From positions 186,001-250,000 of the forward strand of contig RSEE01000060.1 in the NCBI GenBank assembly GCA_003971905.1: a DNA stretch of 64,000 nt. The letters run 5' to 3'. Below, piece after piece: positions 555 through 64,000 of this stretch. Source of the stretch: Moniliella sp. 'wahieum' (lineage: Eukaryota). Position 1 is the first letter of the stretch. Each line of letters starts with the position of its first letter. Below the pieces are notes generated by a model. It saw nothing but the letters and a program-made list of their open reading frames with translations, was not told where the DNA came from and made no database searches. A program made the translations under genes and the position numbers.

Positions 555-1013
555 CGTGCTGGGCACGCGGCGAGCAGGAGGGCGTGGGTGTCTCGGGCGC
601 TGGGCGGGACACTGCGCTGGTGCGCTTGTTGCACCACCTTCCACATAGAGCGCTGGGCCAGCACTGCCCCCGTGCGGCAGCGGCCCACGCCGGCAGTTTT
701 GCGGTTGTGTTTTGCTGTGCTCTCGGGCGAGGCATCACGCGGACATCACATGTCACACATCACCCGCTGCTCACGCTTGCACCGATCGCCAGCACCGCCC
801 ATCGATATGTCGCTCCCGCCCTGTCCGTGGACGCACCAGGCGAAGGCACCGCCACTCCTCTCCCTTCGATGTCGGCAGCAGGCCAGACGGCACCCTTGCC
901 TACCACACCTTTCCTACCACCATCCTTACCACCATCGTTACCATCTTCCCTACCACCTTCCCCCTCCCACCGTCCTTGCGCCAGCCTCACACATGCATCC
1001 CATTCACTCCACA

Positions 1014-3657
1014 CTACAACAGCGCCTGCAGCTCGTGCCGGCCATAGTCGTTCCGCTCGTCCGACAGCTCCTGCATGTTGGGGTAAAACGGCACCAGTGC
1101 CGCCTGGGCGCCGAGGTAGTTGGTGTTGTAGGTGCGGACATAGATGCTGCGCACCTTGCGTGCCGGATGGAACAGGCCCTGGAGCGTGTAGTTGAGCAGC
1201 ACCCCGGGTCCCAGTGCCACCCGCATCGCCTCGACCGCTTCCATCACCGCCCCAATCACATGCGGCGACAGTTCAAAGATGTTGGGCCAGACGAGGTTGA
1301 GCAGATGCTGCATCGAGTCCTCTTGCCCTAGCCCAGCCACGCCCAAGGCCAAGTGCTTGACAATCGACGCTGCCGTCTGGCGGTGCACGTGGTCCCGGTC
1401 CGTCAACGCATCCTCCAACGCACCCAGCACCGAGTAGACATAGTCCTTGCCCATCTCCCCAATGTACTCAAACACGAACGACAGCGCCTTCAGCACCCCG
1501 GTCCGGACGTTCAGCTCCGGTTGACGGTACTCGTTGAGCAGGTACGGAATCGTGATAAACGGTCCTGTCGTCTCGGCTACAATCGCAATCGCCACCGTTG
1601 AGCACACGCGCGACTGACGTTCCTGAACCCGCAAGTTGGTAAGCAACACTTGTAGTACGTCTTGCGGGCCGATCGCCTTGGCAATGTACCCAAAACTGTT
1701 GACCGCCGCCCGACGAATGGCTTGTTTGTGGGCCTTGAGCAGATCCAGCAGCTCAAAGCAAATCCGCATCCATTCCCGCGCCGCCACGTACTCTGCACCC
1801 CGATCCGCAATCCGACCAATCAACTGGATCGAGGCCTCCTGCACCTTTTCGTGTCGATTGCGCAGAATCGGGGTCATACTTGGCAACAGATCCTTGATTG
1901 GCGGCTTCATCTCCGTCATGCCCAACACATTGGAGATAGCAGTAATGGCAGTGATGATCGACGCGAGCGCTTCGGGGAACTCTTCTCCAATCTCCTCAAA
2001 GAGCACCACGCCTAGACGACCCAGCACTTCGTCCTCATCACACAGCTTCATTACCACGGCCAATTTGGCCACCAAATCGGCGGCCTGCTGGCGCGTTTTG
2101 GGGTCCTTGTTGTTCAACCGCCATTGAATCATGGCTGAGATTTGAGGGAGGTAAGGCTTGATGCGGATTCCAAGCGAGTTGATCACTGTCGCAATACCAT
2201 CGAGCATCGTGCTGTCCTCAATCGTCTGTTCTTGGAAGGCAAACGTCAACCCATCCACCAGCTCCTCTTCAAGACGCTGGTCAATATCCGCTGCTCCCAA
2301 GTTGCCCACCACTTTATCGATCGCCTCAACCACCATCTTGCGGAACGGCTCGTTCTCATCTTTCAGGTCCGGCGCAATCCGTCCCACAATCTCCGATACA
2401 CCCACTTTATTGGCCAGCTCGACCGTGGTAGTAACCACCCGCGTTGCCGTCCGCCGGTCGATCGCCAACCGACGTACCCAAAACGCTTTGAAAAACTCAG
2501 GCATCAATTCGGCTTTGAGGAACTGGCCGGTGACGCCGTCGGTTGCTGCGCATTGCTGGACGACTTGGAGAACGATCCGACGCATCTCGTCGTCGGCCGA
2601 GTGAAACTCGCGCACAAGGACCGAAGAGATTTCCTTGACGAACGGCAACGCTGTATCGGAGTCCATGAGGGGGATGATGTATCCAAACGCACGAAGGAAA
2701 GCGGCCAAACTCTTTTTGCTGCTCTGCTCCACCCCTTCCAGCAAAGGCTTGAGCACCCCTTCAAACTTTCAATCCCATACGGCGCTGCGGCCTCGGCCAA
2801 CGCCGAGAGCGCCAAGGCGGTCATCGTCTTGACCTTGTTCTGCTCGTCCCGCAGCCCCGGTTCAATACAGTCCACCAAGTTTTTGAGGTGAGGCAGAATG
2901 GCACACCCGGAAAGGATGGCGATCTGCTGGACAATGCGTGTCCCAGTGTGGCGTGCTTCCCAGCTCCGTTTCGACGACACACACAGCCCTCAAAAAGGGG
3001 AGCAGGGCCGGGATGCCCAAGGCAGAAGCCACGACACTAAACGCGCGAGCGGTCGTGTTGCGTACATACTCGTCTGCTGAATCAATATCGGGTCGCATCT
3101 CCTTAATCATTGCGCCAACCCTGCGGCCTTGGAGAGATTGCTGATGATTTCCTTGCCTTCAATCCGCGCATACCGGTCCTCCTCAATCAACAGCGGTTCG
3201 ATCACAACCAAGATCTCGTGCACGTGGGGACGGACGAGATCATCCAGCTTGTTCAGCACACGATCCACCACCTTGACAAGCAAGTGCCGTTCTTGGTCCT
3301 CCAACGAACGTTCCATGAGCAAAGGAAGGATGCGGTCAAACAACGCCTTGGCCCCAAACTCACGGGACCGGTCAGTGAGCTGGCGCAGGGCAACCTTACG
3401 CATGGCAGGCGTACCGTTCTTGATCTTGAGCACAGACGCATGATTTCCGTTCCTTGAGTTCCTCCATCGATAGACCTTCCTCCTCCCCTGTAGCCTTGAG
3501 GATCTTGCCAAAATGGTGTGCATCCTCGCCCCTGAGCGAAACCTGGCCACCCCATACACGTCCGTCGGCAACTCCGGCGCCAAGTCCAACACCGCCCGCC
3601 GCGCCGCCGTATCGTCCGACATCATGAACCCCCCCGTAGACGTGCTAGCAACGGGAG

Positions 3658-3688
<31 letters not shown>

Positions 3689-6989: not shown

Positions 6990-8214
6990 GTGAAGCGCTC
7001 TTGCACCATGTCGGCCACGGTACTTTCGTTGGGCCCCGCTGCCAACTTTCTGGCGCCGCTACAGGCGTACCTCATGACCTCAACTCTCTCCAGTCGGGGG
7101 GGTGGGGGAAGGACTCAAAGCCCAAGCTGCCTGGGGCACGGTGAAGATGGGGGCGAAGGTGGTGGCGAGGTGGGTGAGTGGAGTGAGTCGCGGGGGGATG
7201 GCCTCGATGCTGGGCATGGGGTGGGCCGAGCCGGAACCAGAACAAGGCACAGGAACAGGACCTGAACTGGGACCAAGGCCGGGGAGGGTACCGTCTCGGT
7301 GCCCGATGTGCAGCTCCCTTCGCCGTTGGACAAGGCTTGCTCGTCGCGCCACCCGCTGTTGCGCCACCTCGGCACATACTTGAGCATCCGACCGTGCAGG
7401 CCGGCACCAAGGCGCTTACCCTCCGCGGCAAGCACGGACGCCAAATGGTGGTGCGAGGTTTGTACGGCGTGGTGGGGGACGGTGGGAGCGAGTCAAGTGG
7501 ACGTGTTACTGGCTCGGTTGGATGCCGCCTCGCCGGCACTTCCCGCGTGGTAGCCTCGGCCGAGCGGATCGTGTGCATTGGTGGTCAATGTGCTGAGCAA
7601 TTTGGTCCAGTTGGGCGTGATGGCCTACAGCAACGCTCCGCCCCGAGCCAAGTGGGGTGCGGTGGTCACTTTGTTGGCGATGCGAGTGGTGCGCTTGGCA
7701 GCGGTGTGGACCCCAGTGGTGGTCCTGGTGGGGCACAAGGACCGAAGGAGTTACGGGGTATGTCTACTATTGTCTCCCTCTCCATCCGACCAGTGACACT
7801 TGCCCCATTCTTGTTGTGGTGGGAGAAAGATGAAAAGCCACTGACACTCACGCCGCCTGCTGACTTCTCCCTAACTGCATCTGCGTTTTTTCGCCACCGC
7901 TGTTGTCCACCACCGCACAGCACTTTTCCTAGGTGCCGTTCGGTTCGGCATGGGAGTGTACATCAATGTACTTACGAAGCAAGCGTATGTCCTATGTCAC
8001 TAGTCACTGCTCCCCCCCGGTCTCTCCATGCTGTGATATTAAGAGACTAAAATCCCGGCGTCGAACCACCAACAGGTACGATCGTCAGCGCCGCCGTGAG
8101 CTGGAGGACGAGATGAAGCGGCTTACTGAACCCAAGGCGTTGCCTGGCCCCTCGATTAGCACTGTTGGCGTCAGTGACGGTTCATTGCAGGACTTCCGGT
8201 TCGTGGGTTGGTAA
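6990..8214 (+). CDS. Hypothetical spliced protein with C-terminal hydrophobic segments
   Basis: Two GTATGT donors (about 7758 and 7985) with downstream CAG acceptors (about 7920 and 8075) join VVNVLSNLVQLGVMAY..WGAVVTLLAMRVV..RSYG / ALFLGAVRFGMGVYINVLTKQA / YDRQRRRELEDEMKRL..DFRFVGW*. Needs one restored G. 5' end unclear. Confidence 0.4.
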
Positions 8215-13772: not shown

Positions 13773-13975
13773 TCAGTGCCTGGTGCGCGGGACGCCCTTC
13801 AAGCTTCAAGCTTCATGCCTGGAATATATTGATTGGCCTGTGCCTGGTTTCTCCAGACAGCAAGACCGACCCACACCAGCGACTCGCCACAGCGCTTTCG
13901 ATCCTAGTTCGGCCGCGCTACGTCGGCCCCCTCGGCTCCATGGACAATACATTACATTCGCGAGGACACGTGGGA

Positions 13976-17788: not shown

Positions 17789-18931
17789 CCCCGCCAAGTG
17801 GGACGCGAGGCAGCGGAATGGCGCTTGGGGGCGGAATGGCACCTCGAGGGAATGGACTTGCCAGTCCAGCCTGGACTTCAGGCTGTTCTTCACGTGCTGC
17901 CGCACGTGATGCGTCCCCACACCCCGTCGTGGAAGCCACCGCTGTAGCAGGCTGGAGCTCGTGTGCAATGCGAATCAACTCCCATCTGCGCCAGCTACAG
18001 GCTTGCAATGGGTTAAACGTTAAGGACCTGTGTGCACACAAGAGGAAAGGGAAGAGTCAACGAAAGCGTTTTGGTCCCTGGCGAAAGAATGATGGAGGGA
18101 ACGAGGCGGGATGCTTTCTGTATTCAGGCACGCGCTCATGTGAGCTGTGATGCCGTACCAGGTCCACGGGGGATTCTATATGCCTGTGGTTGCTACCTAC
18201 ACGTTGTGTTGCACTCGTCTCACGACCAAAAACGCTGGCGCCGCTGTCGTCGACTGTGCTGCGCAGGACGAATGAATACTGGGTTTAGACTGTCGGCCGT
18301 TGGCCCCATAGATACCTGGTCAATGTCGTTAGTCCAGCCCAAGTTGGGAGTGTTCGGGAGGACCCAAGGCAGGAGGAGGGGATGATGCGTGAAGCTTGAA
18401 GTTCGGCCTGTGCTGGGAGGGGCTGTGGCAGAATGCATGTGTGCGGCAGGGGAAAAAAAAAAGGTTGAACGTTGATGGATGGAGGAAGGGGGGGGAGCTG
18501 GTGGTTGATGGCGGTGTGGGAGGTTGCGAGAATGAGAGAGAGGAGGCTCCGTTGGCCACGTGCTGTGTGCGAGTGTTGGGATGCGAGTGCGCCAGGGCTG
18601 GCCAGCGCCTGCCAATGTAGGGGCTGGCATCCCGGTGCAAGGGGCTCAGTGAGCGGTGAGCGGTGAGTAGGGGACTAGTACTAAAACCTTAGTGGGTGCT
18701 ACGACTCGCTGGGATGGGGCGGGAGCCCAGACAGTGGCGGTGGGCGTTGCTGGGTGGATGGAGAGGAGGTGGCTGGGCTGCCCAACCCATTCTACGCTCT
18801 GGGCGCGGGTGGCCCGGTGCCCCCTGGCGCGGTGCGTGCGCGAGGAATTCGATTGGATCGGGTTGGCGTGGGTTGTGGAGAAGACGGAGGTTGCTACGCT
18901 TTCAGTTGCAACTGACTAGCTTCAGCGGGCG

Positions 18932-18983: not shown

Positions 18984-19789
18984 GGCTGGGCAGGCACGGG
19001 CGCAGAGCAGGAGATTTCCGAAGCCAGCCACCGGAAAAACAGCAGGCGGGCTGGGCGATGATCGATCGATGAGAGCGTGGGCCTGAGGCTCAGGAGACTG
19101 GTTGCCTGGCCAGGAAGATCGAGGCGGCCCGCACCACGCCGCACCTGGCAGCATCCCCCCTGTCCCGCTCGTTCGTCCGCCTCCCGTCGCCAGCAACCCA
19201 GCAGCTAGCCAACTCGAGCTGAGCAGGGCAGAACAAATCCGGTGGGGCTTGGAGCTTTGGCACTGTCTCGACAGCCGAGGCAGCCGGGCGCTCGGGGCCA
19301 GACCTCCAAGTCGCACGGGGGCAGCACAGTGTGTGTCTCCAGCGCCTTCAGCTTCAGCCTGCCAGGTACGGTGGCATGGTGGCCTGTGCCATCCGCCCTC
19401 GCTGCTGCGGCTGCTCAGTGCTTTCCCCGCCATCGACACAGTTCCGCCGTTTCCCCCGTTGCGTGCGGGGACAGTGGGGACAGCCAACCCGACGGCCAAA
19501 CTTGCTGTGCAATTTCGCCACTCCTCGCAGGCCGCAGCCGCAGGGGAGCAAGACAGAGCCCAGTTGCTTGATGAATTCCTCTAAATCACCTCCACCCCCT
19601 CGGCCACCCTCCTTCTTTCCGCCCTGGCCCGTCATCGACATTTGCACATCCGCTGCAGCACGCTTGCCGTTGACGTTGCCGCTGTCTCTGTTGTTGCTGT
19701 TGCTGTGTGCGATTGCACTTGCCCTTGTTGCCTCTGCCCCTGCATCTGCATCTGTTGGTACCCCCCACCCTGCACCTTTTCCTCCTCCA

Positions 19790-21501: not shown

Positions 21502-21786
21502 GCCTGAGCTTCAGCCTGAAGTTCACGGCTCTCCTTTCTTTTTCCTCTACTGAGCTTCACGGATCTTCCTGCCTGCCTTCTTCCTTGTTGCTTCTTACCT
21601 TACGACCTTCGTGGCTTGATTCCCCCCCCCCTCTTTCCGCTTTTCTCTTTTTGTCTTTCTTCTGCTTCTACCTTTGACTTGGGTCTACTTGGGTCGGGCC
21701 CACTTCACCCCCGCGCCTTCTCTGCGTCCTGTTCAATGTCACCTCAAATTGAGTTGGACGTTCAGCGCTCAGCCCAGCCAGCACCC

Positions 21787-23372: not shown

Positions 23373-23880
23373 ACGTGCCAAATTCAAGTCCCCCTGTGAA
23401 GAAGGCTGGTGAGGTGGTGTGTGGCTGGGGTGCATCCGCAGTAGATAGCGGCGTGGCGTGGCGTGGTGTTGGCAGTCGGGGAACGATGGTGAGAGCATGG
23501 GAAGGGGTAGACGGGGGAGGACATGGGTTTGGCATCCGTGGCTGGCGGTGAACGGCTTGAAGCGTGAAGCTTGATTGCTAGTGCAGAGGGGGGATGTCAG
23601 AGGCCAGTGATTAATGGTTACCGGTTACGGTTAACGAAACGGCGGGCCGCAGCAGGGCGGAATCGCGGCGATCCTAGGCAGATCCACTGCGCGTTGCGCG
23701 CGTTACAACGTAGAAATTCCTGCCCCAGGCCAGAGTACCCAGTTAGTGAGTGGGCTAATGCGGCGCTGTCGCTTCCTTTCTTGGAGCTTCTCCACCACCT
23801 GCCTACCCTCCACCTCTCCCTGCCACCTCTCCCTCACCGCGATCCTTCTCAACCCTCTCTTCTTTCGCTAGCCCGGACCT

Positions 23881-26010
23881 ATGGCAGAGCCTAGCGTTCC
23901 CACGTCTCCCGAACCGGCCCCACCAATGGTGCACCAACTGCTTCTCCCCGTGCGGCCGAGGAAGCAGCCCTGCACCTCTCCAGTGCGGGTGGATGGCAAA
24001 GCGGCTCAACTCGTGATGGACGACGAGCTGCTGTACGTCTTTCGCGGCGCGCCGAGCGTTGCTTCCAAGCTCACATGGACTCGTACGTCTCCCCCCACGA
24101 CGCAACGAGGTGCGCAAGCTTCCCCACCGAATCACTAACGTTCCTCTAGCCTCGCTGCTGGACCAAGTTGCCATTGCCGTGCCGCACTTTTTGGTGCTCA
24201 ACACTCAGTCGTGACGATGTGGATGGGGCGACGCTGTTGATCCGTACCCTGGCCCCACGCCCAGGGAGCAAAAAAGTGGCCACGTGGTTGAAACAGCGCG
24301 TGCTGGCTGCGCCTCGGCCTGCGTCGAGTGGCGCGCCTTCCCACGTGCTCTGGACGGGGGACGAAAGGGTACGCCGTTGTTGACTGGACCGTTTGCTAAG
24401 CTGCGTCTGGTCACCATCGAGGCACGCGTGGCCCCCAGTGACGTGGAGGCCGCCAAGCAGTTTTCCACCACGTGTTTTGCTCGCGCCTATGTCTCGCCCG
24501 TGACGGGCCAACGGATTCAGCCGTACCGCAAACTTCGCGTGCTGATCAACCCCATGGCGGGCCGGGCAAGCCGCCAAGAATGGCAGGGCAAAGTACGTCC
24601 CATCCTGGAAGCGCCGGGTGCGAAGTGACCCGACGATCACTACCCATCGCAATCACGGGCTGGAAATTGTCATGTCGGAAAAAGAGTTGGGCGACAAGTA
24701 CGATGCGTTGCTGAGTGTGTCGGGGGACGGGATGATGCATGAGATCTTGAATGGCTTGGCGGCACGGAGGACGCGGAAGATGTGCTGAACAAGATTGCTG
24801 TGGTCCCCATTCCGACGGGCAGTGGGAACGCTGCGAGTGTTTCTGCTCGGACCCGTGCAGGGCTTCAACTTGGCCCAGGCGGCATTGAATGCGATCAAAG
24901 GTCATTGGCTCGATATGGAAATTTGCGTCGTGACGCAGCCCGTCCAGGCGGCCAAGACGTCGCCCACCTGCAATCCATGCTCGACCTGGTCGCTCCGCAC
25001 AGGGACCCAACGGCGCCCGCCGCGTCGAGCAGGACGAAAAGAACGGATTCGTACGCTACTACTCTCGTTCCTCTCCCAGGCCGTTGGCTTGATGGCCGAC
25101 CTGGACATTGGAACGGAACATCTTCGCTTGTTGGGGACACGCGCTTCGTCTATGGCTACTTGCAGGGCTCGTGCTCAATGGCCGTACCCCCGTCACGGTC
25201 GATGTCAAAATGGGAGCGAGCGGGACGGTGAATCGGGCCGAGATGCGAAAGCGGGTGCAAGAGCACCAGACCGCTTCGTCGCATCAGTACCAGTCCTTGG
25301 CCGGAACTGGAGGAGGAAAATGAGATGGAACGACGAAGGGGCACTTCGGACCCTGTTCCTTCCTCCGCCAAGGGCATGCTCCACTTGGACCATGGCACGG
25401 TCCTAGACGCCCTGGGGGACGACGCACTGCCTTCGCTCGACCTGGCTGACCCGTCTTGGTCCCCATCGCAAACGTTTTTGGCTGGGTCGGCGCAGAAGGC
25501 CGCAGGGCCCGCGCAGCACCAGGATGGGCTCGACTGCGCAAACCTATCTCGAGCTTGTATGCGGGCAAACTTCCGTATGTGGGACGGGACCTGCTGCAGT
25601 TCCCCTATGCGGTGGCAGGGGACCACTTGCTGGATGTGGCGCTGATGCTGCACGAGGGCGGGCGGATGGGCAAGGTGCGGGCGCGATCAACGGGGCAGAG
25701 ACGGGGGAGGTGGTGTACGATAAGAGCTTGGCGTATGCCAAGGTACAAGCACTCCGCGTCACACCCACCTTGCCCGCGGGCCACACCAAGTTGAAACGGT
25801 GGGATCATCTCGATTGATGGAGAACGCGTGCCCTATGCGCCGTTCCAGGTGGAGGTGGCCAAAGATACCCAGCGCACCTGTCGCTCTACACGGCAACTTT
25901 TTCATGGAGCACCACTACCCGGCGCAGGACGCGTGAGACGACGCATCCTATCCTGCTATCCCTCTATCCAGAATGGGCCTCCAGTGGGGCGGATGGACAA
26001 GGACGATTGA
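23881..26010 (+). CDS. Sphingoid long-chain base kinase (Lcb4/Lcb5/SPHK, DAGK-cat family)
   Basis: RVLINPMAG, LSVSGDGMMHEILNG, PIPTGSGNA, SFLSQAVGLMADLDIGTEHLR, SLYAGKLPYVGRD and IDGERVPYAPFQVEV across several frameshifted ORFs. End approximate. Confidence 0.9.
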
Positions 26011-34643: not shown

Positions 34644-34746
34644 TTGACATGTGACATGGGACTTGGGACATGGGACATGGGACATGGGACATGGGACATG
34701 GGACATGGACATGGGACATGGGACATGGGACATGGGACATGGACAG
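34644..34746. repeat. (GGGACAT)n heptamer minisatellite
   Basis: About 15 units, 10 perfect; begins with TTGACAT GTGACAT. Confidence 0.95.
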
Positions 34747-35718
34747 TAGCCTGCCTCCCAAATATTGTTATGGCACTGATAGAGTACTCAGACTGAGTGC
34801 CGAGCGCTGAGCGTTGCCACCGGACTCTCGCGGTCTCGTCCCCCACAGCGCCGATAGAGCGCATGGCACCGAGATATATACAACCGAGCTATGCACTACC
34901 AGCTATAGATACCATCAGCAACCAACTGCCAACTACTGCTACTACTTCTGCATATAGCTTCCGGATTCATTGCAGAGGGGTTTGGATCTGTGGGTGCACC
35001 CAACTGTCCTCTCGGATCTCACACTCCTACTATACAATACACGCGTGTTGTACACACTTGCGTCGTACGCCCGGAAACGCCACCGCTTCTATAATATAGT
35101 AGTACGGTGCTTGTCCTGATAAGGTATCGTCGCGGCCTACTGGGTACCGCTAACGGGGGTCACCGGTCACATCGCACGCGGTTATAGTGTTAAGCTGGAG
35201 CCAGACGGCTCATATGGGCCCCGACCCATCGACGTCCCCCCCTTGCCTCCGATTCGAGGAGATCTGACATCGGAGGACTGTTCTATAGGGGTAGGATCGG
35301 TGGTAAAGGATCAATGGTAGAGGACCGGTGGTAGAGGATCGACGCGTAGTACTCGGTACAGATTCGGGCTTCTCACCCTCCCCAACCCGTTCTACAAGTT
35401 ACCTCAGTTGACTGAGTCCTGAGTACTAGTAGTACTGATCCCTAGCACTCGTACTATACTAACACGATAGCCTGCAGTGTACGGGGTTGGGTGCCTATCT
35501 ACCTACCAGTCCTACTCGTGCCCGTTGCCCGTTTGCCCCTTTACTTTGCTTCCCCTTGCTTCCCTCTCCTCCCCTTTCTGTCACAGCACATGATGAGAGC
35601 GATACATGCATAGCTTTCACGGGGACTGGACGCGAGCCAAGGCGGCGTGGACAAGACGTGGTACCGTGCCGTGCTGGAACCCAAGCCACGAACCGGAGCG
35701 GGAGGCCGAAAACTTATC

Positions 35719-40874: not shown

Positions 40875-43800
40875 GATGGAGAGCAGGGGCAGGGATGGAG
40901 AGATGTTGATGGAGGAAAGGGGAGAGGAGAGGTGGGCGGGAGAGGTGGTGCTGGGTGGCATCGGAGAGGGCAGCGCAGGCCAAGTGTGGCTGGGAGTAGA
41001 ATGTGGATTCTTCCAGAGTGCCTGGCAGCGATGGCTGATGGCTGGTGGATGATCGATAATGGATACTCGATACGGGCTAATCGCATGGCAGGGTTACCTA
41101 GTAACTAGTAACTAGTAGCCCTCCACCCTGCCACGGACGCCTTGCCGCGCGCAGACGCATCTGCTTGCACCGGCGCCACGCCCACTGGCGCTGTGCGCTG
41201 TGGCGGTGGCCATGGTTTATGCATTCTGGCTGGCCGTGGCAGGCGGTGGCTGTGGCTGGTGGGCCGGGGCAGCAGGCAGGGCGCCGGTGTGGGGCTTGCG
41301 TGGCCTGGCGCGGCCCGAGAAGCCGCGTGGCAGATCGAGGCCCACGCGCACTTGCCCTGCGCCCCCCGCCCCTTCCACCCTGGCTGGGCGCACGCCCTGC
41401 CTGGGCCCCGTGGCGTCACTCCCCCCGCGCCTCGCCGCTCTCGGCCCTCGCTGATCCGATCATCCCGTGTGGAGCCGTCACGCGTCATGCATCATCCCTC
41501 ATCCATCCCAGATTCAGCTCGAGCTCGTTCAAGCCGATCTAGCAGACGGGAGTGCGCGCTAGTCGAATCCACGTTGCAAACTCATACTCATCGCTACTGG
41601 CGAATCGCTAATCGCGCAGCGAGCTAGCCCCGTCGCACCCACCGCAGCAAGCGCTACAAACAAGGCACGCCTCCAACCCCTTTCCTCCCTCCTGGGCCGA
41701 GGCAGGTACGTGCGTACGCAGCCGGCGACCCTTCTCGCGCGAACGGCTCTGGTGCATGGCTGCCTGTGGCTGCGCGCCCGCAGTCGTGGTCGCCGCCTCG
41801 CGCATCCTCCCCGCTTCCGCAAGCAGGACAGCATGCGTCACGCATCACTCGGTGTTGTGCATTGCACCTGTTCGCGCCGCGCAGCATAGTGCCTCGCATG
41901 CCCTAGCTGGCCCCACTCTGCCCTCTCAGAATTCCAGAGCTGTGTCGCGCGTATTCGGCTCCCCAGCGCCCCAGCCCACCTTGCCTCTCAGCTTTCCTCG
42001 TCGGTCACCTCCAGCCCGACCGCCATATGCCCCACTCAGCCACCCCCCCCTCCACCAGTGGCGAGTGACGAGTGATCGACCACCTTCTGTCTGCTAGCAG
42101 TCTTCCCCTGCCCCCCGCACGGAGAGCCCACGGCCTCTTTGCAATGAAAGCCTCTGGTCAAAGGTCAAAAGAACCGGGACACGAACGGACAGGCGGGACA
42201 CCTTGGTTAGCAAAGTGACGATCAGCCAAGTGCGGGCGCACAGTGCCCGGTGTGGAGGTATGGGACGATGATGCACATACTCTCCCTGTGATAAGATGGG
42301 GCAGGGACGAGCAATTCCCGAACCGTGCCCATCATAGTCATCAGGAACTCCCCTCAGCTACTCTTGTAAGTAGCTGGTCGTCGGCTTCTACTTGTCCTAC
42401 TTCGAAGCCTAAGGCCTCCTTTGGTCTCATCCGCTTCACCGATCATTGAATATTGACTCGTAAGCCAAGCGAAACATCGTGGTCCAATGCCCTCTTCCCT
42501 GTCCTCCCGCTCTTTGGTCGTTCTGCAGCACGGTTGCCGCTCAGAAAGTAACGTTGTAGCGTCCGCGCGTATCCGCTAATCTCTCCGAGAGTGACAACTA
42601 TCCCATTCATCGATCATCAGTCGGCCTCAGGCCCTGAGGCCTGAGGCAGGTCTGATCCCCCCAACACTGACCTCATTGACCGTTGTCTCTACAATCTTGA
42701 TTTGACTCAGTACTCATACCCCTAGGTTCCCCCATCGCCAAACACCAATCAACACTGACCCACTCTGCATCCGCCAGCACGCCCATCAAACTCTGGACCA
42801 CCAGCAGTTGCGTGCACAGGAAGGACCGCACCAGCCTGTGTCACCCCTCACAAGAGCCCGAAAACCATACTGAATTGATCGTACCAAGGACCGCATGCTT
42901 GACAGCCCCACGTACTCCTAAACCAAGCGTCGGACGTACCCAGGGCCGAACCGGCATGTGCATCAGTCGTCACTCGCTCGGACCCAGACCGGAGGTTAGC
43001 TAGGCCATAGGTTAGGCCGTCGCTTGGGTTGGGAAGGGTGGGCGTGGCGGGCCTGCATCCGATGGGCCAAGACAATTGGCGCGATCCGGCCGGCTGTAGC
43101 CCACCGCCCTCTGCCCCAGCCGGAAGCGTCGACTCGTTCCGAATCACACTGCCAATCGACATGAAAGCTAGCCAAGCATCCTGCACCGTCAGTCCCGTCC
43201 GAGTTGCCGAGTACCCGGGCAGTACTCAAGGTACCCGGCGTATCCGGTATCCGCCCCCTCCCCCCCCCACGACCGAAAGAACGAAAGAACGAGGGAACGA
43301 AGTACGTACCCAAACGTAGCTGCTGACGTGCCCATGAACTGGCAGAGCGTAGCCATCGCCCCGCGAGGCCCAGGACCAGCGCTGTTTCCCCCCGCGTCCA
43401 TCGCACCCCCGTACCCCAAACACCCAAAACACACAAAAGTCAGCTCTTCCCCGCGCAGTCTACCCCCTCGCAAAAGAACACGCGAAAGGTGGGGGTACCG
43501 GTTACCGGTTATGGAGGACGTACCGCATGATCTGCAGGAACCCGCCAATGAACCCAATTGTCAACCCCACTCCACCACCCATCATCGCGCCATCCCTAGC
43601 TTTGCCAAAAGGTGGGCTGCACAGGCTGCTGCTGCTGCTGCTGCACCTGCTGCGCGTTGGACATGTTGGCGATGGAGTGGGTGCACTGAGTACTCGAGTA
43701 CTGAGTGTACTGAGTTCAGGACTGTAGTTCAGTATTGAGCACCTGAGTACTGAGTAGTCTTGGAACCAACCGGCTTGGCCTCTGGGGCCTGAGCCTCAGG

Positions 43801-45221
43801 GCGGATTCTCAGGGTCGGCTTGTCAGATCTCAAGCATCTGCCGCCTCCCTCCTTGCCCCCCGCCTCCCCCACATGGGCCGAAATCAGAGCGAATCATGCG
43901 GGCGGAACGAGGGGCAGAACAAGGGGCGGAACTCTCCGTGTTGCCCCCACAAGCTGTTTTGGACCCGGTCCCCACCCTTGAGGCGTGACGCGTGACGCAC
44001 GCTCCAAGCTTTCAAGCACTCAAATTCTACATTTCAAACATCACACCATGACGTCACGCAGCTAGCCCAGTAGCCCGCAGATTCGATCCCCCCCATCGCG
44101 ACACGGCCTGTACTTGCAATTTCAACAGCTTCCCTCTTGCCCCACAACTCGGGGAACCCCTCCCCCCGCAGGGGGAGGATCGATGATCGATGATCGATGT
44201 CGATGAAGCTGGAAGATCCGTCAGTTGCCACAACGAACAGCAGTCTCCCGTTTGCCCCGTCCTCCATCTCGCCCTCGACGTGGGAATCCCCCCCCCCCAC
44301 CTCCATCGGACCATCTCCTGCCACAGTGGGTGATCACATGACGTAGGATGTCACTCGTTCCTGTGCTGGACCATGGTGCATGGTGCATGGTGCCTTCCTC
44401 GTCGCGTTGAAGAGCCTCTTCCAGCTCCCAACTAAACCTGGAAGAGTTCATGCTCCCCCCTCCCCCCCGTAGTGTCGTCCTTATGTTCCAGGATTGTATT
44501 GGAGGCATCTTGCACGACAGGTCGACCCACATCAACTTTTTCCCGGGCCGTACCCGCGTCACGGACCGTCTGCCGCATTTCGGTCGCTTTCTTCCGTCCG
44601 ACTGGCTCGGGTACCAAGCGCACCAGCGGCTTTTGGCCTGCCACATCTGCTTCGTCCGCCATGTCAGGCGGAGGCTACGGGCCTGAGCCCAGCTACGCGG
44701 GTACGCGGGTATGCGGTGCCGGCTTGGTTCGTCACGACAGTGGGCAAGCTATGTCGCTCTGCTCACGCCTCGGCTAACGCGCCACCACTGGCTGGGGGAA
44801 CCTAAGGTGCAACCCCCGCCACTAGCTGGAGATAACGATAACCCTTACGCAGCAACCGCAACTGCAACCGCAACCGCATACGGATACAATCCGGCGCCCA
44901 GGGTTCTCCATCTCCTGGACTGGGCTCTTCTGCTCTCCTTCTCATCTCTTACTAGTGATCTCACCTCTAACTTGTCTCTTGCCACTTCTGACGTCTAGAA
45001 TCTCAGGCCGTTTTCAACCAGTCTCTGTCCCCTTACTGCGTGCTAACCCTATACCCACCACGCACATAACGAATGGGCTATTGGACACATTGGTAGAGGC
45101 AAAGGTAGTTCCACAGTCATAGGCAGGCCAGGACGAACCCACGCAGCCATGTCCAGCAATCACAAAGAGGCAGCAAACAAAGGCTAATAAGTAGAATGGT
45201 GCCCATCCCCAACCCAAGGGT

Positions 45222-45278
45222 TGGATTGGATTGGACTGGACTGGATTGGAATGAAATGGAATGGATTGGAGTGGAGTG
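45222..45278. repeat. (TGGAN)n pentamer repeat downstream of PEX11
   Basis: TGGAT, TGGAC, TGGAA and TGGAG units read directly. Confidence 0.85.
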
Positions 45279-45314
45279 GGGGTGGGGGGTGGATGTGGAT
45301 GGGAGGAGGGGCAG

Positions 45315-46205
45315 TTACTTTTTTGCCGAGCCCGTTCCATTGACCGAATTCCACTGGCTCCGGCCGCCCATGAGGGCCGTGATAAACCAGCAGCACCAGC
45401 ACACCTTCGTTGAAGTGCAAGTACTCCAGCGACGTGGCCGGAAAATAAAGTCGATCGCGTCCTGGGTCATCTGGCGACGGACCGAGTACTGTTCCTTGAG
45501 CACTTGCACGTACTGCGTCTTGCGTTCGGCCTCCTTCTCGGCCGACGCAACGGGGCGGGAAACAGCAGCCAGACGCTGGCGGATCACATAGCTCTTACGT
45601 CCCCGACACGAGCGAGAAGGACAATCCAAACAGCCAGAACCGCGCCGCCGTACGCGAAATGAACTTGGCCGTGTCCGGCGCAAACTGGTACACCTTGGCC
45701 CCATTCACCCACTGCAACAAATCAAACACGAGGTACACAGCGTACCCCAGTTGACGCCCGATCGCCGTCACACGCAGCACGGGGTCTTGGATCGCCAACG
45801 CCTTCGTGGCCGATTGAATGTGCTCCAAAAACTTGCCCGCACGCATCACTGCAGCCAGAGGCACACGGTCAGTTGCAAGCTCCACACGCGAGAAGAGCCG
45901 TCTGAGCCAAACGTACGTTTCCGCGTCAGACCAATCTGCGACTTGAGCGCACTAAAGCGGTCAACGACCGCCTTGGATGCGCCCTGACGGTACTCGTACC
46001 ACGCCAGGAAGCGGGATGCATACTGGATGGTACGGTAGGTCTTGTCGCGGCCGACAGTGGTCGACCAGAAGCGGAGCTAAGGGGGGGGGAGGGTCAGAGG
46101 CAACGTCGCGGGACGCAGGGGGGCAGTTGGCGCGGGCGGAGGGGGGGGAGGACACACCGTCTGGCTGAGGTAGGGGTGGAGGACGATCTGCTGGACAGCG
46201 GCCAT
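45315..46205 (-). CDS. PEX11: Peroxisomal biogenesis factor 11
   Basis: MAAVQQIVLHPYLSQT|LRFWSTTVGRDKTYRTIQY..GLTRK|LMRAGKFLEH..IGRQLGYAVYL..RFWLFGL. Introns 46077-46157 and 45849-45916. Confidence 0.92.
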
Positions 46206-47185
46206 GGCGGAGGAAGACAACGAGGAGGCGGTGGTGGTGGGGGAGAAGGAGGTGGAGGAGAGGGCGCGAATGGGCGGGTATCGCAGGGCGGGTGCGGGTG
46301 CGGGTGCGGCTGGCTTGTGGGCCGCCTGGAGCCGGAATATGCATCGCAGTGCTTGACCGTTTCAACCCCCCGATCCGGCAACTCCGGCTCCCGCTTCCGC
46401 CCTGCCACGCGCCACGTGACAGCCGCCCGCGCTCGGCTCCCGCCGTGCCGCCTGCATTCACACGTCCCACTGGCCCACCTCCGGCGCAGCCTGCAGCCTG
46501 TAGCCGCCCCGCCGACGTCATTGCGCCACCGCTGATGCACACCGCTCACGCACACCGCCCATCCGCCGCCGCACCCTGCTGTTCCGAAGACCGCCCTGGT
46601 GCCCCGCTGCGGGGATGCTCGATGACAGCGCCGGCACACACAGCCCGCGTGCGGGCCTGCTTGCACCTCCTCTCCCATTTCACATCTCGCGTCGCACCCC
46701 GCATCACATGATCGGTGCGTCAGCGGGTCCGCATGCCACCGCTTCCCCGTTTCAAATTTGACCGGCCTTGGAGCACGAAGCTTGAAGCTTGAACGTTGAA
46801 CTTGAAACTAGCTTGATTGCCCGCTCCTTGCCGGCCACGTGACCGTCTCCGGATCTTGGACATGGCACCGATTGGCCACCGACATCACGTGGCCAATCCA
46901 ATCCACTCGGCTGAGCTCAGCGGCTCAGTCAGGGGCAGGTTTTGACACTTTCACTTCCCCAGGGCGGAGTTGGCTGGCTAGGAGGGAGGGGCGCGCAATT
47001 CCGCCCGCCGCCGAAGATTTTTTCCTCGGCTCGGGGCCAGTCTTGCTGCTGCGGCTGCCTGGGCCGGCAGATCCTCCCCCGACGCTCCATCACACCGCCA
47101 GCCAGCCCGCCAGGCGCCCTCGTCTTCGGTCGTCTTCGTCTCGTCCTCGACCTCGCCCCCGTCCCTGCCATCGACACTGCCCACC

Positions 47186-49348: not shown

Positions 49349-50631
49349 GGTAGGTACTGGACAGCACGGAGAGAAACAAGGACAGCAGAGATAACAAAAG
49401 TGACGCAGAGAGAGGGGGTGCGCGTTGGGTACTTGCCGCAGGATCTAGACGGACGGAGTGGAGGGGTAGGGCGGTGACGATGCTGGTGGTGGTGATGGTG
49501 GTGGTGATGCTGATGGTGGTGGCGGTGGCATGGTGGGACGAGATGCAGATTGGGTTTACGTAACACCCTCCCCCAGCCACCCTCGATTCAATCATTGCGT
49601 GGGCCCCAAATGAAACTGCAGTTGGCACCGCACTGGCTCGATCATCGATTAACGTTCAACGTTCAACGAGAGAGCCAACCATAAACCAGGCTAATAAGAG
49701 CCCACTTCTACAGCTCCAACAGCTCCAACTTGACCCTCCCCCCCTCCCCAGGGCTGGATAGTATAGCCTTCACATGGCAGCAAGAATACCAAGAATTCAA
49801 TGGGCGGGTCCAACCGAGACGGTCCCGACCTCGAACATCTCTCCTACACCTCACCGTATCAATTTGTACAGGCCGCGCGTGCCCCCCGGTCTACTCCACC
49901 CAGTTTAGGAAGAAGGGAATGATGATGGATGGATAGGATAAGGAAAGGAAGAATGGAAGGAGGGGTGTATCCCGACAAGACGAAATCGGATGAGATGTAT
50001 ATGGGATCACACCGTTCAGAGTTCAGATCATTCAGGTTCAGGGGAAATGAAAAAAAAAGCGAGTACAAAACAGTAGACAACAAAAGCAGAACAGTTAACT
50101 AAACCCCCACAGACAGGGGAGAAGAGAGTGCTACCGATTCAAGGATTTATACCCATCCATTGACAAGGGGTTTGTATTGGATTTCACATCAGCCTTGGCT
50201 GGTGTGCTCCAAGATCTCGGCAGTGGCTGCGAAATGGATTCAAGGCGGATGAATATCAACCAACGGAGATGAGACGTTGCATGTGGCAGAGTATAATAAG
50301 ATCAATATGGTACGGTGTTCGAATTCAAGCTTCAAAGAGCCCGGTGGGGATGCAACCCTGAGACCCAACTTGCTTGTCAGTGACCAGTATCGTCCTGGCG
50401 TATTAGTATCGGTGGGTAGATTCCACCTCGACAACTCACATGCACCGTCCACGATCCACGGTCCTCGGTACATGCGTGGGTCATGCCTCATGGGCCAAGA
50501 GTCCCAATGACTAGTCAGGTCGGTTGGGATTGCTTGGGGACGCGGGCGGGGAGGGAGGTTGGGACGAAGACTGCCACCGCTGCGGAGCGAGTAACTTGGA
50601 CCACCGCTTAAGATTTGCTTTGGAGCCAGTC

Positions 50632-54864: not shown

Positions 54865-56298
54865 AGAGTGGAGCTTACAATTTGGAGCGTGGAGCTTCGC
54901 ATGTGGAGCTTTGAGCTTGGACCTTGGACTTGTCACTCGGTCCTCTTGTAAAATACGCAGCTGGGGTCAGTCTGTGCTGTTCCTACAGCAGCAGCGGGCG
55001 GACCTGATCCCCCCACCTTCTTCCCCTCTGCGGCTATCTTCCCTCGAAATCTTTTCTCCCTCTCATCTCCCCCTTTGGCGGTCTCTATTGGTAGAATACA
55101 CCATTTGTAGTATGATGGGTATGCGCCTCAGGCCTCATCGGATTCTAGTGTGCTGGATAGTCAGTGGGCTGGTCTGCATTCCGCGCTCTCGCCTCCAGAT
55201 GGTACAGCTATAATCATCCTGGCCTTAAGGTGCTGTGGGTTAGGGGGATAGGAGGTTGCCGCTTCTGGTTTCGTTCGCAGGGGGGTTGACAGTTCACACC
55301 CCCGACTAAAATCAATGAACTGACTGTGTATGTCGTCGGTGCTTCGTGCCGGAGCATTGTTCTTGCTACTGCCAGCAGCGTTGAAACGGGTAGGCTGATT
55401 GTAGAGTAGGGTCCCATGTAGGCGATCTGTGGAGCACATTCACAGGCAAGAACACATCCGCAGCCCGTCCGGTGTGCCCCCCCCCCCCCTCATATGATGG
55501 TCTGGCAGAGCACTGTGCACGAGAGGGACTCATGAAGGCACTGGGTGTGGACAGAGGGACGGGGGCAAGTGGGGTCCGCGGTTCCCCGGACACTAGCGAC
55601 CGAGCGAATGGCCTGCCAAACAAATCGAATCGCCTTACTTCCGTCCCCAACGACAAGCCCGCGCGTGAGGGAGAAACAAAATGGTGTTCCTGTATAAGTC
55701 AACTCAGAGAGGGGACATCCGTGAGCAACTACCGCGTCTGGGAGAACAACAGATAAAATCATTGACCCATGCCGGCTCCTTCCTCTCCCCCATCAGGACA
55801 AGAGCTGCGACCGAAGAGGAGCCAAGGGCATCCAATCCCAATCTACATTCTGTATTCATTGCATTTGCAGAACGTAGTAACAGAGGGACACGGAAACGAT
55901 GCACCTAGTATAGCCATGTGGGGTTCGCTCCTCTGTGGTGTGTGCTAGTACTAATATACTTGCGAGTTTGAACAAGGGCATGGCAGTGGCGGGTGATATG
56001 CCATCACACATCACATGATGACATGCATGACATCAGCACGAGGCCACCGGGTGTATTTGAAAGTTGGAATGATGATGATCAGCGTCCGCCATCGGTGGCG
56101 CCTCGGAGAAAAATCGCAGTCGCACTAACAGGTAGCGGATAACGAGCGGATAAAAAAATTGCACGCGACGAAGCACTCTCTGAGCTTGCCTAGGTTGGCG
56201 AAGCAAATCTTATGACCATTCGCGCCGTTCATTTCTCCTTTCCAACCCCGCCACCAACATCATCTTTTTCGGCAGCTTCCGCGCTCACGCCTGGCGAC

Positions 56299-57621: not shown

Positions 57622-58228
57622 TCCGTTCCTCGCAGGTCGGCAAAAGGCGCTGGAGGTCTGGAGCTTCAATGGCGTCAGGCGCTTAATTGTTGCTTGATGG
57701 ATGCCCACCAAAACACGTACTTTGCACTTTGCTCCTGTGTCTTCGACTGAGCCATAGTTTTCCTTGGGTGGCCACGTTTCCCTGCCCCTCGGGGCGTGCG
57801 GCTGTGCGTTTGCTCGCCAGGTAGTGGGGTATCGTGAGTACTGAGTGCGAACCAAGGGCAGCGGCAAGTGGCCGTCACGCGTCGCGCGCCACACCGCCAT
57901 GCGGCGTGTGTGTCCCTTGCATGTGCGCTGCGATCACCGATCGACATCGGCGCTGGCCGGACTCGAGCGGCGACCGCCCACAAAGTCCGCGTTCAATGTT
58001 CAAATCCACGGTGAGCCGCCGCCCGCCGCTCGCTTACGGTCGCGCGGCGGCGCACACTGGCGCTGTGCCGTCACCGATCGTCGGTGCTCCCCGGCGCGCC
58101 CCCCGCACCAGCGCGCAGCGCGGCCGGGCGCACTGCCCGTGGTTAGCTAAGCCACATCACGCATCCCCCCGGCAGGATCTGCGTTGTGTTGGTTGCCTGC
58201 CCGGCTGGATGCCCCTCCACCATCTCCA

Positions 58229-61286: not shown

Positions 61287-61899
61287 ACTTGCCCACGACC
61301 GACGCCGTCCCCACTACCACCATCCTCACTGCCGCCACCATCACCTCATCAGTCATCACGAGTGTCCACACGCTTCCGCTCGATCTAAACCCCAGATCCC
61401 AGCACAGATGCTCCAGCTACCATCCTAGACGGCTCTATCCGTCCCGCCGATCAAAGGTGGCGGCGTAGCGTGGTGCGGTGCGGTGGGGTATGGCGTGGTG
61501 GGCGACTGCAACGTACATTGAGAGAGGAGACCTTGATTATACATCCAATCCTATTTGATGATGCCCGTCGAGCGATGCTGCGTTAGCGGGCAGCCGGAGT
61601 GGGGAAGGAGGGGCAGCAGAGGAACGAGCAGGAGCTTCCGCCTTTGGTGTAGTGTTTATCGGGCGACCATGCGACTGAGATGAATCGATGATGCGCCGAG
61701 CTCTCTAGTCCTTACTGGCCGTGCCAGAGCGATGGGGTTAGCCTTCCCCTCCCGTCCTCACGCGACGCGGTGCCGCATTAGGGTTACGCGTTACGAGGAA
61801 TGCTCCGCGGCTCATTTGCACCCACACAGCCCTCCCCCTGCATCACGTAAGCCGCGCCTGGGCACGGCCAAAAACAGCTGATTATCGGGACACTCCGCC

Positions 61900-62962
61900 A
61901 TGCTGCCCAGCACGACGCCCAGCACCATGCTGAGCACCACGCGGAGCACGATGCCCATGCGTACCCTGCTCACTGGCATGCGCCCCCAACTCCTGGGCCT
62001 GGCCTCCCACTCGTGCCGCACGGCCTCTGGCCTGCGCGCCATCCACGTCTCCGCCCGCCTCAGCGGTCCAGGCGACGCTAGCTCCGCCGCTCCGCCGCCG
62101 CTCTACCCTGGCCACGTACGCCTCTCAGGACTGCAGCGTGCCTTCCTGGCCTTCGGGGCCGCCGGAACCGCATTCCTCAACCCAGCGCGCGGGGATATGG
62201 TCGCTGTTCTTTCGGAGGCGTCCGGTCCTTCCTTCCTGCCCCGCCTGCGCGACCAGATGATCTCCACCGCCGAGGGACGGCGCTTGCTGCTCGAAAAGCC
62301 AACGATCAATACCCACACAGTCGACATGGCGTACCTCAAGTCTCTTCCCGACGGATCATTTGGTCGAGTCTACGTCGACTGGCTCAATTGGTGCAACGTT
62401 TCCCCCGACACACGCAAGCCTGTACGTTTCTTCTTGTTACTCTTTCTCTTCTCTTCTCTTCGTTTCTGTTCTCTCTCCTCTGCTAACGCGAACACCACAT
62501 AGGTGCGGTACATTGATGACCTGGAACTGCGCTACGTGCTGCAGCGGTACCGCGAGTGCCATGACTTTTACCATGTTCTCTGTGGCATGCCTGTCTCCCA
62601 GGGGTGAGACGGTGACCAAGTGGTTTGAGGCAGCGCACATGCACCTCCCTATGGCCGCTCTTGCGTCGATTGCGGGGCCAACTCGGCTGCGGGGCACAGA
62701 CCTAGTCATCTTTCCGCAACTGGCACGATGGGCTGTCCAGATGGGTCAACAGGCTAAACCTTTGATCGCTGTCCGATGGGAGTCCCGCTGGGAACAACCG
62801 TTCGACCAGGTCCGCAGGGAACTCAACATGACTCCACCCCGGTCCAGTTGGAGTACACCCCTCGTCGCGGACCGCGCAAGCTTCCCTTCTCCACGCGCAT
62901 TGTTGAGGCGCGCGACAGAGGGCTATGGCCGCGCCCCTTGTGAGTCTGGGCCTACGCAGTAG
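61900..62962 (+). CDS. COQ4: Ubiquinone biosynthesis protein Coq4
   Basis: Mitochondrial-type presequence, [62 protein letters not shown]. Intron 62422-62502. End approximate. Confidence 0.94.
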
Positions 62963-63167
62963 ATGGGATGGGTAGGACACTTGGGTGCCATATCGCACTC
63001 TACCGTCCTGCCCCAGCAAAACGTCAAGGGTGGTCTGTGCAATGCAGGCAATGAAAGGATGCTCCCCGGGCGTCCCAAAAAAAGACGCATTCTCTTCGTC
63101 ACTATCATACATGCGCACCCCCCACTCCAGCTCTGTAACATGTAAGCCCTACTGCAGTATTTTGTAG

Positions 63168-64000
63168 TTGGCTACGATCGAGATCCACACAAGGGCCCAC
63201 GATTCTCTTGTGGAATCGCTCTGTCTCTCGCACCAATTCTCAGCGAAAAAAGTTAAAGAAGGATCTGGCCTGCCCATTGGCCCCCAAGGCGGTTCTAATT
63301 CACTGAGCTTATCTTCGACCTCTCCATCCGTCCAAGGACATAGACTGATGCTCGCGTCTCGAAGAATTTAACTTTGACATGGGACAACTCCTGGCTCCAT
63401 CGGTCGAGAAAAGAGTTTGTCCAAGTTCTGTTGACGGTGTTCTTGAACCCGATCTGGTCCAGCATGCATCGTCGCATTTTCGAGTTGGCGGTACGTTGTG
63501 TGCACATACCGCGGATATGACCTTAAGATTGAAGCTTGACGTCTGTTGCTTGCAGTCAGAGATATTGACTTTGGGTCATTTCAGCCCGTGGTTTTGGATG
63601 CATCGAGCCAGGAGGACTGGGTGCGCCAGGCTTCGTCATGGACAGCAAAGGTTTGGGGGGGGGTATAGGGACTAACACGCAAGCTGTCGTACCCATGGTG
63701 TCTCATCGGAAAGTCGTGAACCTCCTTCTGGCTGCAGCAATTTATGAGGAAATGTTCGGGGGCATGCACAGCCAGACTCACCTCCACCAGGGGCAGGGAA
63801 TCAGGATCCCGGGACAACCAGGTTGAGATCGGCGAGGATGTTGATGAGCTGCCACTGAGAGGAAGACCTCACTGGCACAACGAGCCACGCATCCGGAAAG
63901 GGCACCCAAGAGACGAAAACAATGACGCGTGGGCGGAGATCCAAACGTTGATTGACGATGAACCCCGCCCGTGTCATGGAGAAGTGCCGTGCAGAGAGCA
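63168..64000 (+). other. Possible fragmentary coding sequence running off the window end
   Basis: Successive short + ORFs and an open frame to 64000 (..VEIGEDVDELPLRGRPHWHNEPRIRKG..). No family recognised. Confidence 0.2.

Follow-up and report, generated by a model that had tools for sequence, protein, structure and literature searches.

The 64-kb window of the fungus Moniliella sp. 'wahieum' studied here (contig RSEE01000060.1; approximately 60% G+C) holds housekeeping genes and, in its non-coding DNA, many short arrays of period 7 in which a T-N-A triplet alternates with a palindromic tetramer; all counts below refer to this one window. We scanned all 318 stop-to-stop open reading frames (ORFs) of at least 100 amino acids against Pfam and found the matched ORFs to be pieces of intron-split housekeeping genes. 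They include SF3B1, xanthine dehydrogenase, an ammonium transporter, a dual-specificity phosphatase, RPN1, PEX11, eIF3f, an HBS1/eRF3-like GTPase, sideroflexin, PRMT5, and COQ4. The eIF3f ORF was 54% identical to that of Tilletiaria anomala; the other best named matches came from Ustilaginomycotina, and the top match overall was at 74%. These matches point to a smut-related basidiomycete whose close named relatives are missing from the protein collection. No transposase family was found among the 318 ORFs, neither a tRNA nor an Rfam match was found in the window, and a self-BLAST detected no dispersed repeat family, returning only four low-complexity matches. Short tandem repeats were abundant (201 rows from Tandem Repeats Finder).

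We defined a strict 10-mer as T-N-A, a palindromic tetramer, and T-N-A, with identical N in both triplets, and found 45 occurrences in 39 loci. A preliminary description of the window, made from the letters alone, had read the arrays as an intergenic grammar of heptamers with a freely varying tetramer and had proposed a comparison with a Markov background. That comparison bore out the excess: across 100 simulations at each of orders 1, 3, and 5, the strict 10-mer averaged 1.81, 1.40, and 2.35 occurrences, respectively, with a maximum of 9. The 12-base form [TNApq][q'p'][TNApq], where q'p' is the reverse complement of pq, occurred 47 times on both strands against simulated means of 0.20–0.45 and a maximum of 3. 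The 7-base repeats are genuine and greatly exceed what chance would give. Of the 27 sites listed earlier, 22 held a strict match with the named tetramer (within –8 to +25 bases), while five turned out to be imperfect or inverted relatives: those at 56004, 34782, and 43687 were imperfect, the one at 32801 had complementary N and formed a perfect 10-bp palindrome, and at 49638 the N differed. Eighteen of the 39 strict loci lay beyond that list.

Extending the period-7 identity around every strict match gave 43 runs. The loci, together with variant forms, are given below with their strand ('.' in all rows); the run is the period-7 run around the strict match, L its length in bp, X the five-base repeat, and P the two-base spacer:

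746..757 (.), 12-bp run, TCA/CATG, X-P-X, extension 0/2
7996..8008 (.), 13-bp run, TCA/CTAG, absent from the preliminary list
13797..13815 (.), 19-bp run, TCA/AGCT, X-P-X-P-X, two overlapping matches
18012..18023 (.), 12-bp run, TAA/ACGT
18390..18401 (.), 12-bp run, TGA/AGCT
18464..18475 (.), 12-bp run, TGA/ACGT
19056..19072 (.), possible variant with four-base inverted spacer, TGA + 8-bp palindrome + TGA, three of four flank bases copied
21762..21773 (.), 12-bp run, TCA/GCGC
23565..23574 (.), 10-bp run, TGA/AGCT, imperfect unit before it
23616..23628 (.), 13-bp run, TTA/CCGG
24732..24742 (.), 11-bp run, TGA/TGCA, the sole match within a weakly codon-scored segment
26993..27003 (.), 11-bp run, TCA/GATC
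28972..28990 (.), 19-bp run, TCA/CATG, X-P-X-P-X
32271..32284 (.), possible three-base variant, TCA + 6-bp palindrome + TCA, two of three flank bases copied
32438..32464 (.), 13-bp TCA/CATG run, then a TCA/CACG array departing from the rule by one substitution (32445–32464)
32791..32803 (.), 13-bp run, TGA/CCGG, left half of a two-sided array
32801..32823 (.), perfect 10-bp palindrome TGA/GTAC/TCA twice, 13 bp apart, N complementary, inverted variant
32872..32886 (.), variant with three-base inverted spacer, six-base repeat + 3 (TGA + 6-bp palindrome + TGA)
32962..32975 (.), 14-bp run, TCA/ATAT
33359..33374 (.), 16-bp run, TAA/CTAG, extra upstream unit missing one base
33545..33559 (.), 15-bp run, TCA/GTAC
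33792..33815 (.), 14-bp TCA/GTAC run, then the 10-bp palindrome TGA/GTAC/TCA (33806–33815)
34119..34142 (.), two-sided array on one TGA, TGCA left (34119–34133, L = 15), CGCG right (34131–34142, L = 12)
34645..34742 (.), TGA/CATG run (L = 14) running into about 14 copies of the unit with T→G
35158..35170 (.), 13-bp run, TCA/CCGG
41098..41117 (.), 20-bp run, TAA/CTAG
41476..41495 (.), two-sided array on one TCA, CGCG left and TGCA right (L = 12 and L = 11)
42445..42456 (.), 12-bp run, TGA/ATAT
42607..42618 (.), 12-bp run, TCA/TCGA
42633..42647 (.), 15-bp run, TGA/GGCC
42705..42716 (.), 12-bp run, TCA/GTAC
43496..43511 (.), 16-bp run, TTA/CCGG
43685..43756 (.), degenerate TGA/GTAC cluster, its last part a 14-bp run (43743–43756)
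43823..43832 (.), 10-bp run, TCA/GATC
43983..43998 (.), 16-bp run, TGA/CGCG
44178..44199 (.), 22-bp run, TGA/TCGA
46777..46801 (.), TGA/AGCT run (L = 17) passing into a TGA/ACGT run (L = 13)
49640..49668 (.), two-sided array, TCGA unit left, ACGT units right (L = 18), common TNA = TTA
50324..50335 (.), 12-bp run, TCA/AGCT, extension 1/1
55125..55137 (.), 13-bp run, TCA/GGCC
57835..57846 (.), 12-bp run, TGA/GTAC
61783..61795 (.), 13-bp run, TTA/CGCG
63134..63145 (.), 12-bp run, TAA/CATG
63529..63539 (.), 11-bp run, TGA/AGCT

The excess was confined to one outer pair and one spacing. Where T-N-A x4 T-N-A occurred with equal N, x4 was palindromic in 45 of 99 positions, compared with 89 of 1,873 for the 15 other outer pairs together (0–11% each), which upholds the reported preference for palindromic tetramers. 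Counted by outer pair, the 12-mer was found 47 times for TNA but 0 times for ANT, once for CNG, and twice for GNC; every non-TNA pair gave at most 10, and the counts for GNA (10) and TNC (8) were the product of one long array at 34664–34742. The underlying process requires T and A two bases apart. Among triplet gaps of 0–10, only a gap of 4 was enriched (99 positions, vs. 19–51 at the remaining gaps). At that gap the non-palindromic TNA-x4-TNA were also raised about twofold (54 vs. ~25 at other gaps), and these may be decayed copies of the symmetric form. The middle base of the paired triplets was the same in 45 cases, complementary in 6, and otherwise in 5. The apparent linker preference for C or G proved to be composition, with 38 of 45 matches against 74.5% of the non-coding TNA sites. 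The strict 10-mers used 13 different tetramers roughly as available and flanking dinucleotides broadly, with only the pairs made of A and T alone under-used (2 observed vs. 6.8 expected); a C-TNA-G context was not preferred beyond its availability.

Counts made by period agreed. Of the perfect tandem repeats with two or more units, 50 had period 7, and 18 of these consisted of a 6-bp palindrome plus one base, compared with 9.9% of all 7-mers in the window; 16 of the 18 had the outer pair A....T. Repeats with periods 3–6 and 8–12 showed no palindrome excess. Hexamer palindromes of the A....T type lay 7 bases apart 16 times and 0–4 times at any other distance up to 30, and those with other outer pairs showed no excess at 7. 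Spacings between identical triplets likewise peaked at 7 (TCA to TCA, 55 vs. ~13; TGA to TGA, 30 vs. ~11), with no such peak from TCA to TGA.

The basic object is the 12-mer [TNApq][q'p'][TNApq] and not a 7-bp tandem repeat: a five-base direct repeat flanks a two-base spacer, and the spacer is the reverse complement of the neighboring two bases. The heptamer array that had been taken as the unit thus gives way to this 12-mer, and the tetramer is not free but consists of the two bases beside a given TNA followed by their reverse complement (pq + q'p'), with the outer A..T of the hexamer palindrome supplied by TNA. Relative to TNApq, each 12-mer is a net +7-bp insertion at TNA, and the adjoining five bases template all seven inserted ones. 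The 43 runs comprised two of 10 bp, four of 11, 13 of 12, eight of 13, four of 14, three of 15, three of 16, one of 17, one of 18, two of 19, one of 20, and one of 22 bp. The modal run of 12 bp carries its two additional bases on exactly one side; it amounts to 1.7 units and is therefore too short for birth by 7-bp slippage.

An unbiased list of the exact 5+2+5 repeats in the window gave 80 cases, of which 16 had TNA at the outer end. The two-base spacer was inverted in 12 of these 16 and in 2 of the 64 others (chance, 12.5%). A general rule of five-base repeats with inverted spacers in any sequence did not hold, as the total was 14 in 80 against an expected 12.5%, and 12 of the 14 were TNA-ended. 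The repeat is five bases long, not four, because T preceded the 11-mer core in 47 of 58 occurrences. The inverted bases always copied the end distal to TNA and never the TNA end, and no objects of the 5+2 type were found at periods 8 and 9. We also rejected an origin of the 12-mers by decay from full 14-mers: the outermost base on the unextended side, read by eye, matched in only 5 of 12, and tetramers with one mismatch were too few (one pair kept in 24 and none in 30, vs. 657 and 1,127 in controls).

Longer arrays followed the same anatomy. At 13797 and 28972, three-copy arrays measure exactly 19 bases, which corresponds to X-P-X-P-X. Where different tetramers adjoin, they have one TNA in common and each tetramer is built from the two bases on its side; matching half-tetramers were found at both outer edges in three of four two-sided arrays (34119–34142, 49640–49668, and, bar one base, 41476–95), and the array at 32791 combines a left expansion with the inverted variant. 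Mixed-tetramer arrays are thus one TNA expanded both ways, which makes a "grammar" unnecessary and explains the apparent compensatory double changes. At 46777–46801, one base of the repeat has changed and the unit after it carries a spacer altered to match; one substitution suffices under a new templated event, where slippage would need three matched changes.

Slippage has a clear case of its own at 34664–34742, the longest period-7 array of the window, where about 14 copies of the TGA/CATG unit with T→G grew after a founding event at 34645. Several non-symmetric period-7 arrays lie one substitution from the rule, which suggests that this process gave rise to more of the window's heptamer repeats than a strict match picks up. 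The array at 44372–44393 reads TGG/TGCA instead of TGA/TGCA, and that at 32445–32464 reads TCA/CACG instead of TCA/CATG or TCA/CGCG. Flank copying was also seen in rarer longer forms, in 3 of 42 positions at gap 6 and 1 of 28 at gap 8. These are the variant at 32872–32886, TCA + 6-bp palindrome + TCA at 32273 and 61216, and an 8-bp form at 19059; a form with a one-base spacer was not enriched.

The GTAC class with TGA or TCA was found at no fewer than eight places. The perfect 10-bp palindrome TGA-GTAC-TCA appears three times (32801–32823, 33806–33815, and 34783–34799), and an identical 17-base stretch containing it lies at 32802–32818 and 34783–34799, with the same 13-bp spacing logic. This palindrome is a complementary-N relative of the arrays, unless it is a short motif or binding site in its own right that is dispersed in the window. 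We searched for intact elements among TNA-flanked segments of 28–8,000 bp whose inverted ends span 14 bases, allowing up to three mismatches, and found none convincing in the window among eight weak candidates. The best, at 33546–33806, resembles a miniature element, with 252 bp inside, TCA on either side, and 14-base inverted ends with two mismatches; it was set aside, as the TCA/GTAC arrays form its ends and the window has no second copy of it.

None of the 45 strict 10-mers lay in Pfam-matched ORFs (19,003 bp) and one lay in a codon-scored segment, on a rough codon-usage map of coding DNA that covers 40% of the window; the report of no array inside confident coding sequence is in this respect correct. 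Any +7-bp change would avoid coding DNA, however, and the location is thus no evidence of promoter function. In approximately 38 kb of non-coding DNA, the 39 loci mark ~3% of the 1,251 TNA sites, with a density of ~2.6 per kb at 32–36 kb and 40–44 kb and ~0.7 per kb elsewhere. The regions 32000–35600 and 41100–45400, which lack ORFs with a Pfam match and have hardly any codon-scored segments, hold 18 of the 39 loci at about fourfold density; they could be long intergenic DNA, unrecognized genes, or old mobile DNA. A further region, 26100–31950, is very dense in repeats of periods 6 and 9 (for example, a 9-mer with 10.9 copies at 27497–27593, and 28528–28791), and its open frame of 545 amino acids at 27770–29404 has no Pfam match, suggesting low-complexity coding or non-coding repeats.

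Ordinary microsatellite slippage, favored for hairpin-forming and nearly self-complementary units, would account for the growth of arrays after their formation, as seen in the ~14 mutated copies at 34664–34742, and for multi-unit loci (L of at least 14 in 16 of 43 runs) being far more common than independent events would give; the strand-symmetric arrays are also able to fold. As a source of the pattern it is nevertheless very improbable. The modal object has only 1.7 units, and 27 of the 43 runs are shorter than the 14 bp of two whole units; the poor match of the outermost flank base speaks against the 12-mers being 14-mers in decay. Microsatellites should depend on neither a trinucleotide nor a symmetry, yet 16 of the 50 period-7 arrays are an A-palindrome-T plus one base, and the palindrome excess is missing at period 5, 9, or any other. 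We considered a thermodynamic specialness of the TNA loop and rejected it, as the 7-mers are predicted not to fold and TNA arrays fold worse than those closed by G and C: the mean predicted energies for arrays of three units are –4.12 and –3.78 kcal/mol for G..C and C..G and –2.45 kcal/mol for TNA, yet G..C and C..G arrays are not enriched. The earlier argument that plain slippage cannot explain a constant symmetry with changing sequence is thus supported by the 12-mer mode and the absence of excess at other periods. Palindromic artefacts do occur in some library types, and a sequencing or assembly artefact such as fold-back chimeras would have to produce a strict TNA specificity and a fixed 5+2 geometry over 39 loci, spare the Pfam-matched ORFs in all 45 cases, and leave decayed copies; we regard it as scarcely credible.

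Selected cis-elements, either sites for a factor that recognizes TGA/TCA every 7 bp or a promoter code of a structural kind, would fit the non-coding and often intergenic position of the objects, the sharp TCA-to-TCA peak at 7, and the recurrence of the GTAC class with its perfect 10-bp palindrome. We think this quite unlikely. The arrays use 13 tetramers about as available, and a protein cannot read palindromy without reading sequence; their spacer copies the local flank; and the spacing itself is not the enriched feature, the non-palindromic TNA-x4-TNA being only mildly raised. A dimeric factor, as the preliminary description had offered, fits poorly in that its arrays should show inverted half-sites or a conserved core, while the TNA triplets are direct and not inverted repeats (45 with the same N vs. 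6 complementary). The promoter or chromatin code offered alongside it has in its favor only the non-coding location, which any frameshifting insertion would share. Of the options listed there, a template-switch or hairpin-primed repeat-generating process is the one supported by the anatomy. One such route needs no site-specific nuclease: replication would copy TNApq, switch to the complementary strand for about three bases (q'p'T), return at T, and re-copy NApq, leaving a micro inverted triplication. The product is exactly direct, inverted, and direct (A p q, q' p' T, A p q), the return point has one base (T) in common with the end of the inverted tract, and both short template switches (as outlined in PMC7954356) and inverted triplications at the ~150-bp scale linked to FEN1 (as summarized in PMC13334657) belong to known classes of error. 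Any complementary outer pair should serve such a switch, however, yet the 12-mer is all but restricted to TNA; the first switch would occur without microhomology, the inverted junction has no spacer, and one fixed length is used nearly always. We consider this route rather unlikely.

The anatomy, specificity, and iteration of the 12-mers are read directly from the sequence, and the arrays are very probably scars of some mutational process rather than selected motifs. For the more specific reading of templated +7 insertions left by a break beside TNA with a fold-back step, we find the case about evenly balanced, and a PIF/Harbinger-type enzyme is a tentative candidate for the agent. In this proposal, a nick or staggered break would be made directly 5' of the T of TNA, as the second repeat copy begins at T. 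The likeliest agent would be a DDE nuclease specific for T-x-A, since PIF/Harbinger-type transposons follow this target rule. Five bases would then be re-synthesized with displacement of the old strand, and the new 3' end would fold back and copy its last two bases, giving a P-nucleotide-like inverted junction; a fold-back or hairpin step is proposed since that junction has no spacer. Joining of the folded end to the old 5' T would turn TNApq into TNApq-q'p'-TNApq. Either side of TNA could be struck, producing two-sided arrays with two tetramers, and repeated events and ordinary slippage could lengthen the arrays. One model that would give both mirror-image products, which we hold loosely, has the triplet overhangs re-anneal, one nick being sealed and the other extended by five bases; the new end would copy two bases of the displaced flap and join its 5' T, and the resulting 7-base loop would become the insertion.

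The scars resemble several known systems in part. They share the T-x-A target of PIF/Harbinger elements, with T and A fixed and N as available. The sections of PMC4561436 on mPing, a member of this group, describe a 3-bp duplication with the first T and third A required and the middle base tolerant, TCA and TGA included, and section 7 proposes that excision leaves complementary 5' triplet overhangs; imprecise mPing repair products, given in its Fig. 6 and its Additional file 4, may be relevant here. According to the same sections (PMC4561436), these elements excise precisely and leave one triplet, whereas the scars keep both TNA and four further bases and have a repeat of five. No PIF/Harbinger element or transposase was seen in these 64 kb. 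Target duplications of hAT elements are 8 bp long, and P-nucleotides are typically two bases. The footprints of Ac/Ds, a hAT system, are treated in PMC4561436 as palindromic copies of flanking DNA and ascribed to hairpins. Both these and the P-nucleotides of V(D)J joining resemble the scars in having filler inverted from the flank and not from an element, as seen in 12 of the 16 TNA-ended repeats here, with no spacer at the inverted junction. The scar repeat peaks at 5 and not at the 8 bp of hAT duplications, though, and the scars copy only the TNA-distal end with a nearly uniform outcome, in contrast to the varied outcomes of hAT and V(D)J.

Tc4/Tc5 of C. elegans duplicate TNA, and footprints of the Tc1/mariner type resemble the scars in keeping both duplication copies around a short palindromic filler. 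In Tc1/mariner, on the account given in PMC4561436, the filler is constant and comes from the element ends, whereas the scars have 13 tetramers copying the flank. Synthesis-dependent microhomology-mediated end joining likewise fills breaks with inverted and direct copies of adjoining sequence, and snap-back priming between adjacent nucleotides is among the events reported in PMC2943611; the breaks described for it are induced, without a trinucleotide tie, and yield variable products, while the scars have one dominant product at TNA only. End joining and template switching should be independent of a fixed motif, and the dependence on TNA is strict. The inverted triplications associated with FEN1 (duplication, inversion, duplication) have the same order of direct, inverted, and direct copies; the abstract of PMC13334657 gives segments of ~150 bp with a 30-bp spacer and states no sequence specificity, in contrast to 3–5 bases and no spacer here. 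The scars combine the target rule of PIF/Harbinger, the filler of hairpin footprints, and the order of inverted triplications, yet for every family they lack one or more of its defining features. No description of the pattern was found by word searches limited to open-access text, which is not proof of its unpublished status; they returned nothing relevant to the Ustilago heptamer repeats mentioned in the preliminary description, and that parallel was not confirmed.

Several points weigh against a break with fold-back made by a PIF/Harbinger-type enzyme. The window is without transposon, transposase, dispersed repeats, or a convincing TNA-flanked element, and 39 loci in ~38 kb are very dense for transposon traffic in so transposon-poor a region. 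Excision in PIF/Harbinger is clean, and mPing with matching duplications, in the experiments covered by the sections of PMC4561436 cited above, never left both copies. A symmetric TNA cutter predicts a duplication of three bases and not five, such that the 5+2 form calls for an additional step that we infer, and a near-constant two-base spacer is unusual for end joining. Simpler variants of the proposal fared worse: cuts staggered symmetrically by three or seven bases, followed either by the opening of a hairpin or by a simple snap-back, predict, when worked on paper, gap-0, gap-2, or non-palindromic 14-mers, and these products were not enriched. An origin of the tetramer in element ends is ruled out by its first half being the local flank.

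If the scar reading holds, such arrays should not be taken as regulatory grammar. It is conceivable, although we would not presume it, that the lineage harbors an undescribed mutational engine in which a TNA-specific nuclease nicks and a two-base fold-back repair writes a +7-bp scar, the nuclease being a domesticated or very active PIF/Harbinger-like transposase or some other enzyme. If so, the engine would have touched ~3% of the non-coding TNA sites, most heptanucleotide repeats and newly arisen 6-bp palindromes in the intergenic DNA of the genome would stem from it, and one stereotyped, easily recognized type of insertion would dominate the small insertions of this genome. Counting [TNApq][q'p'][TNApq] would be a simple test for any genome and could map the lineages in which the engine is active and help to find the enzyme. 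The arrays would then form a natural record of break-and-fold-back repair, giving the nicked base, the reach of synthesis, and the length of the inverted tract, and they would document how microsatellites, and palindromes resembling restriction sites, can originate in the absence of slippage.

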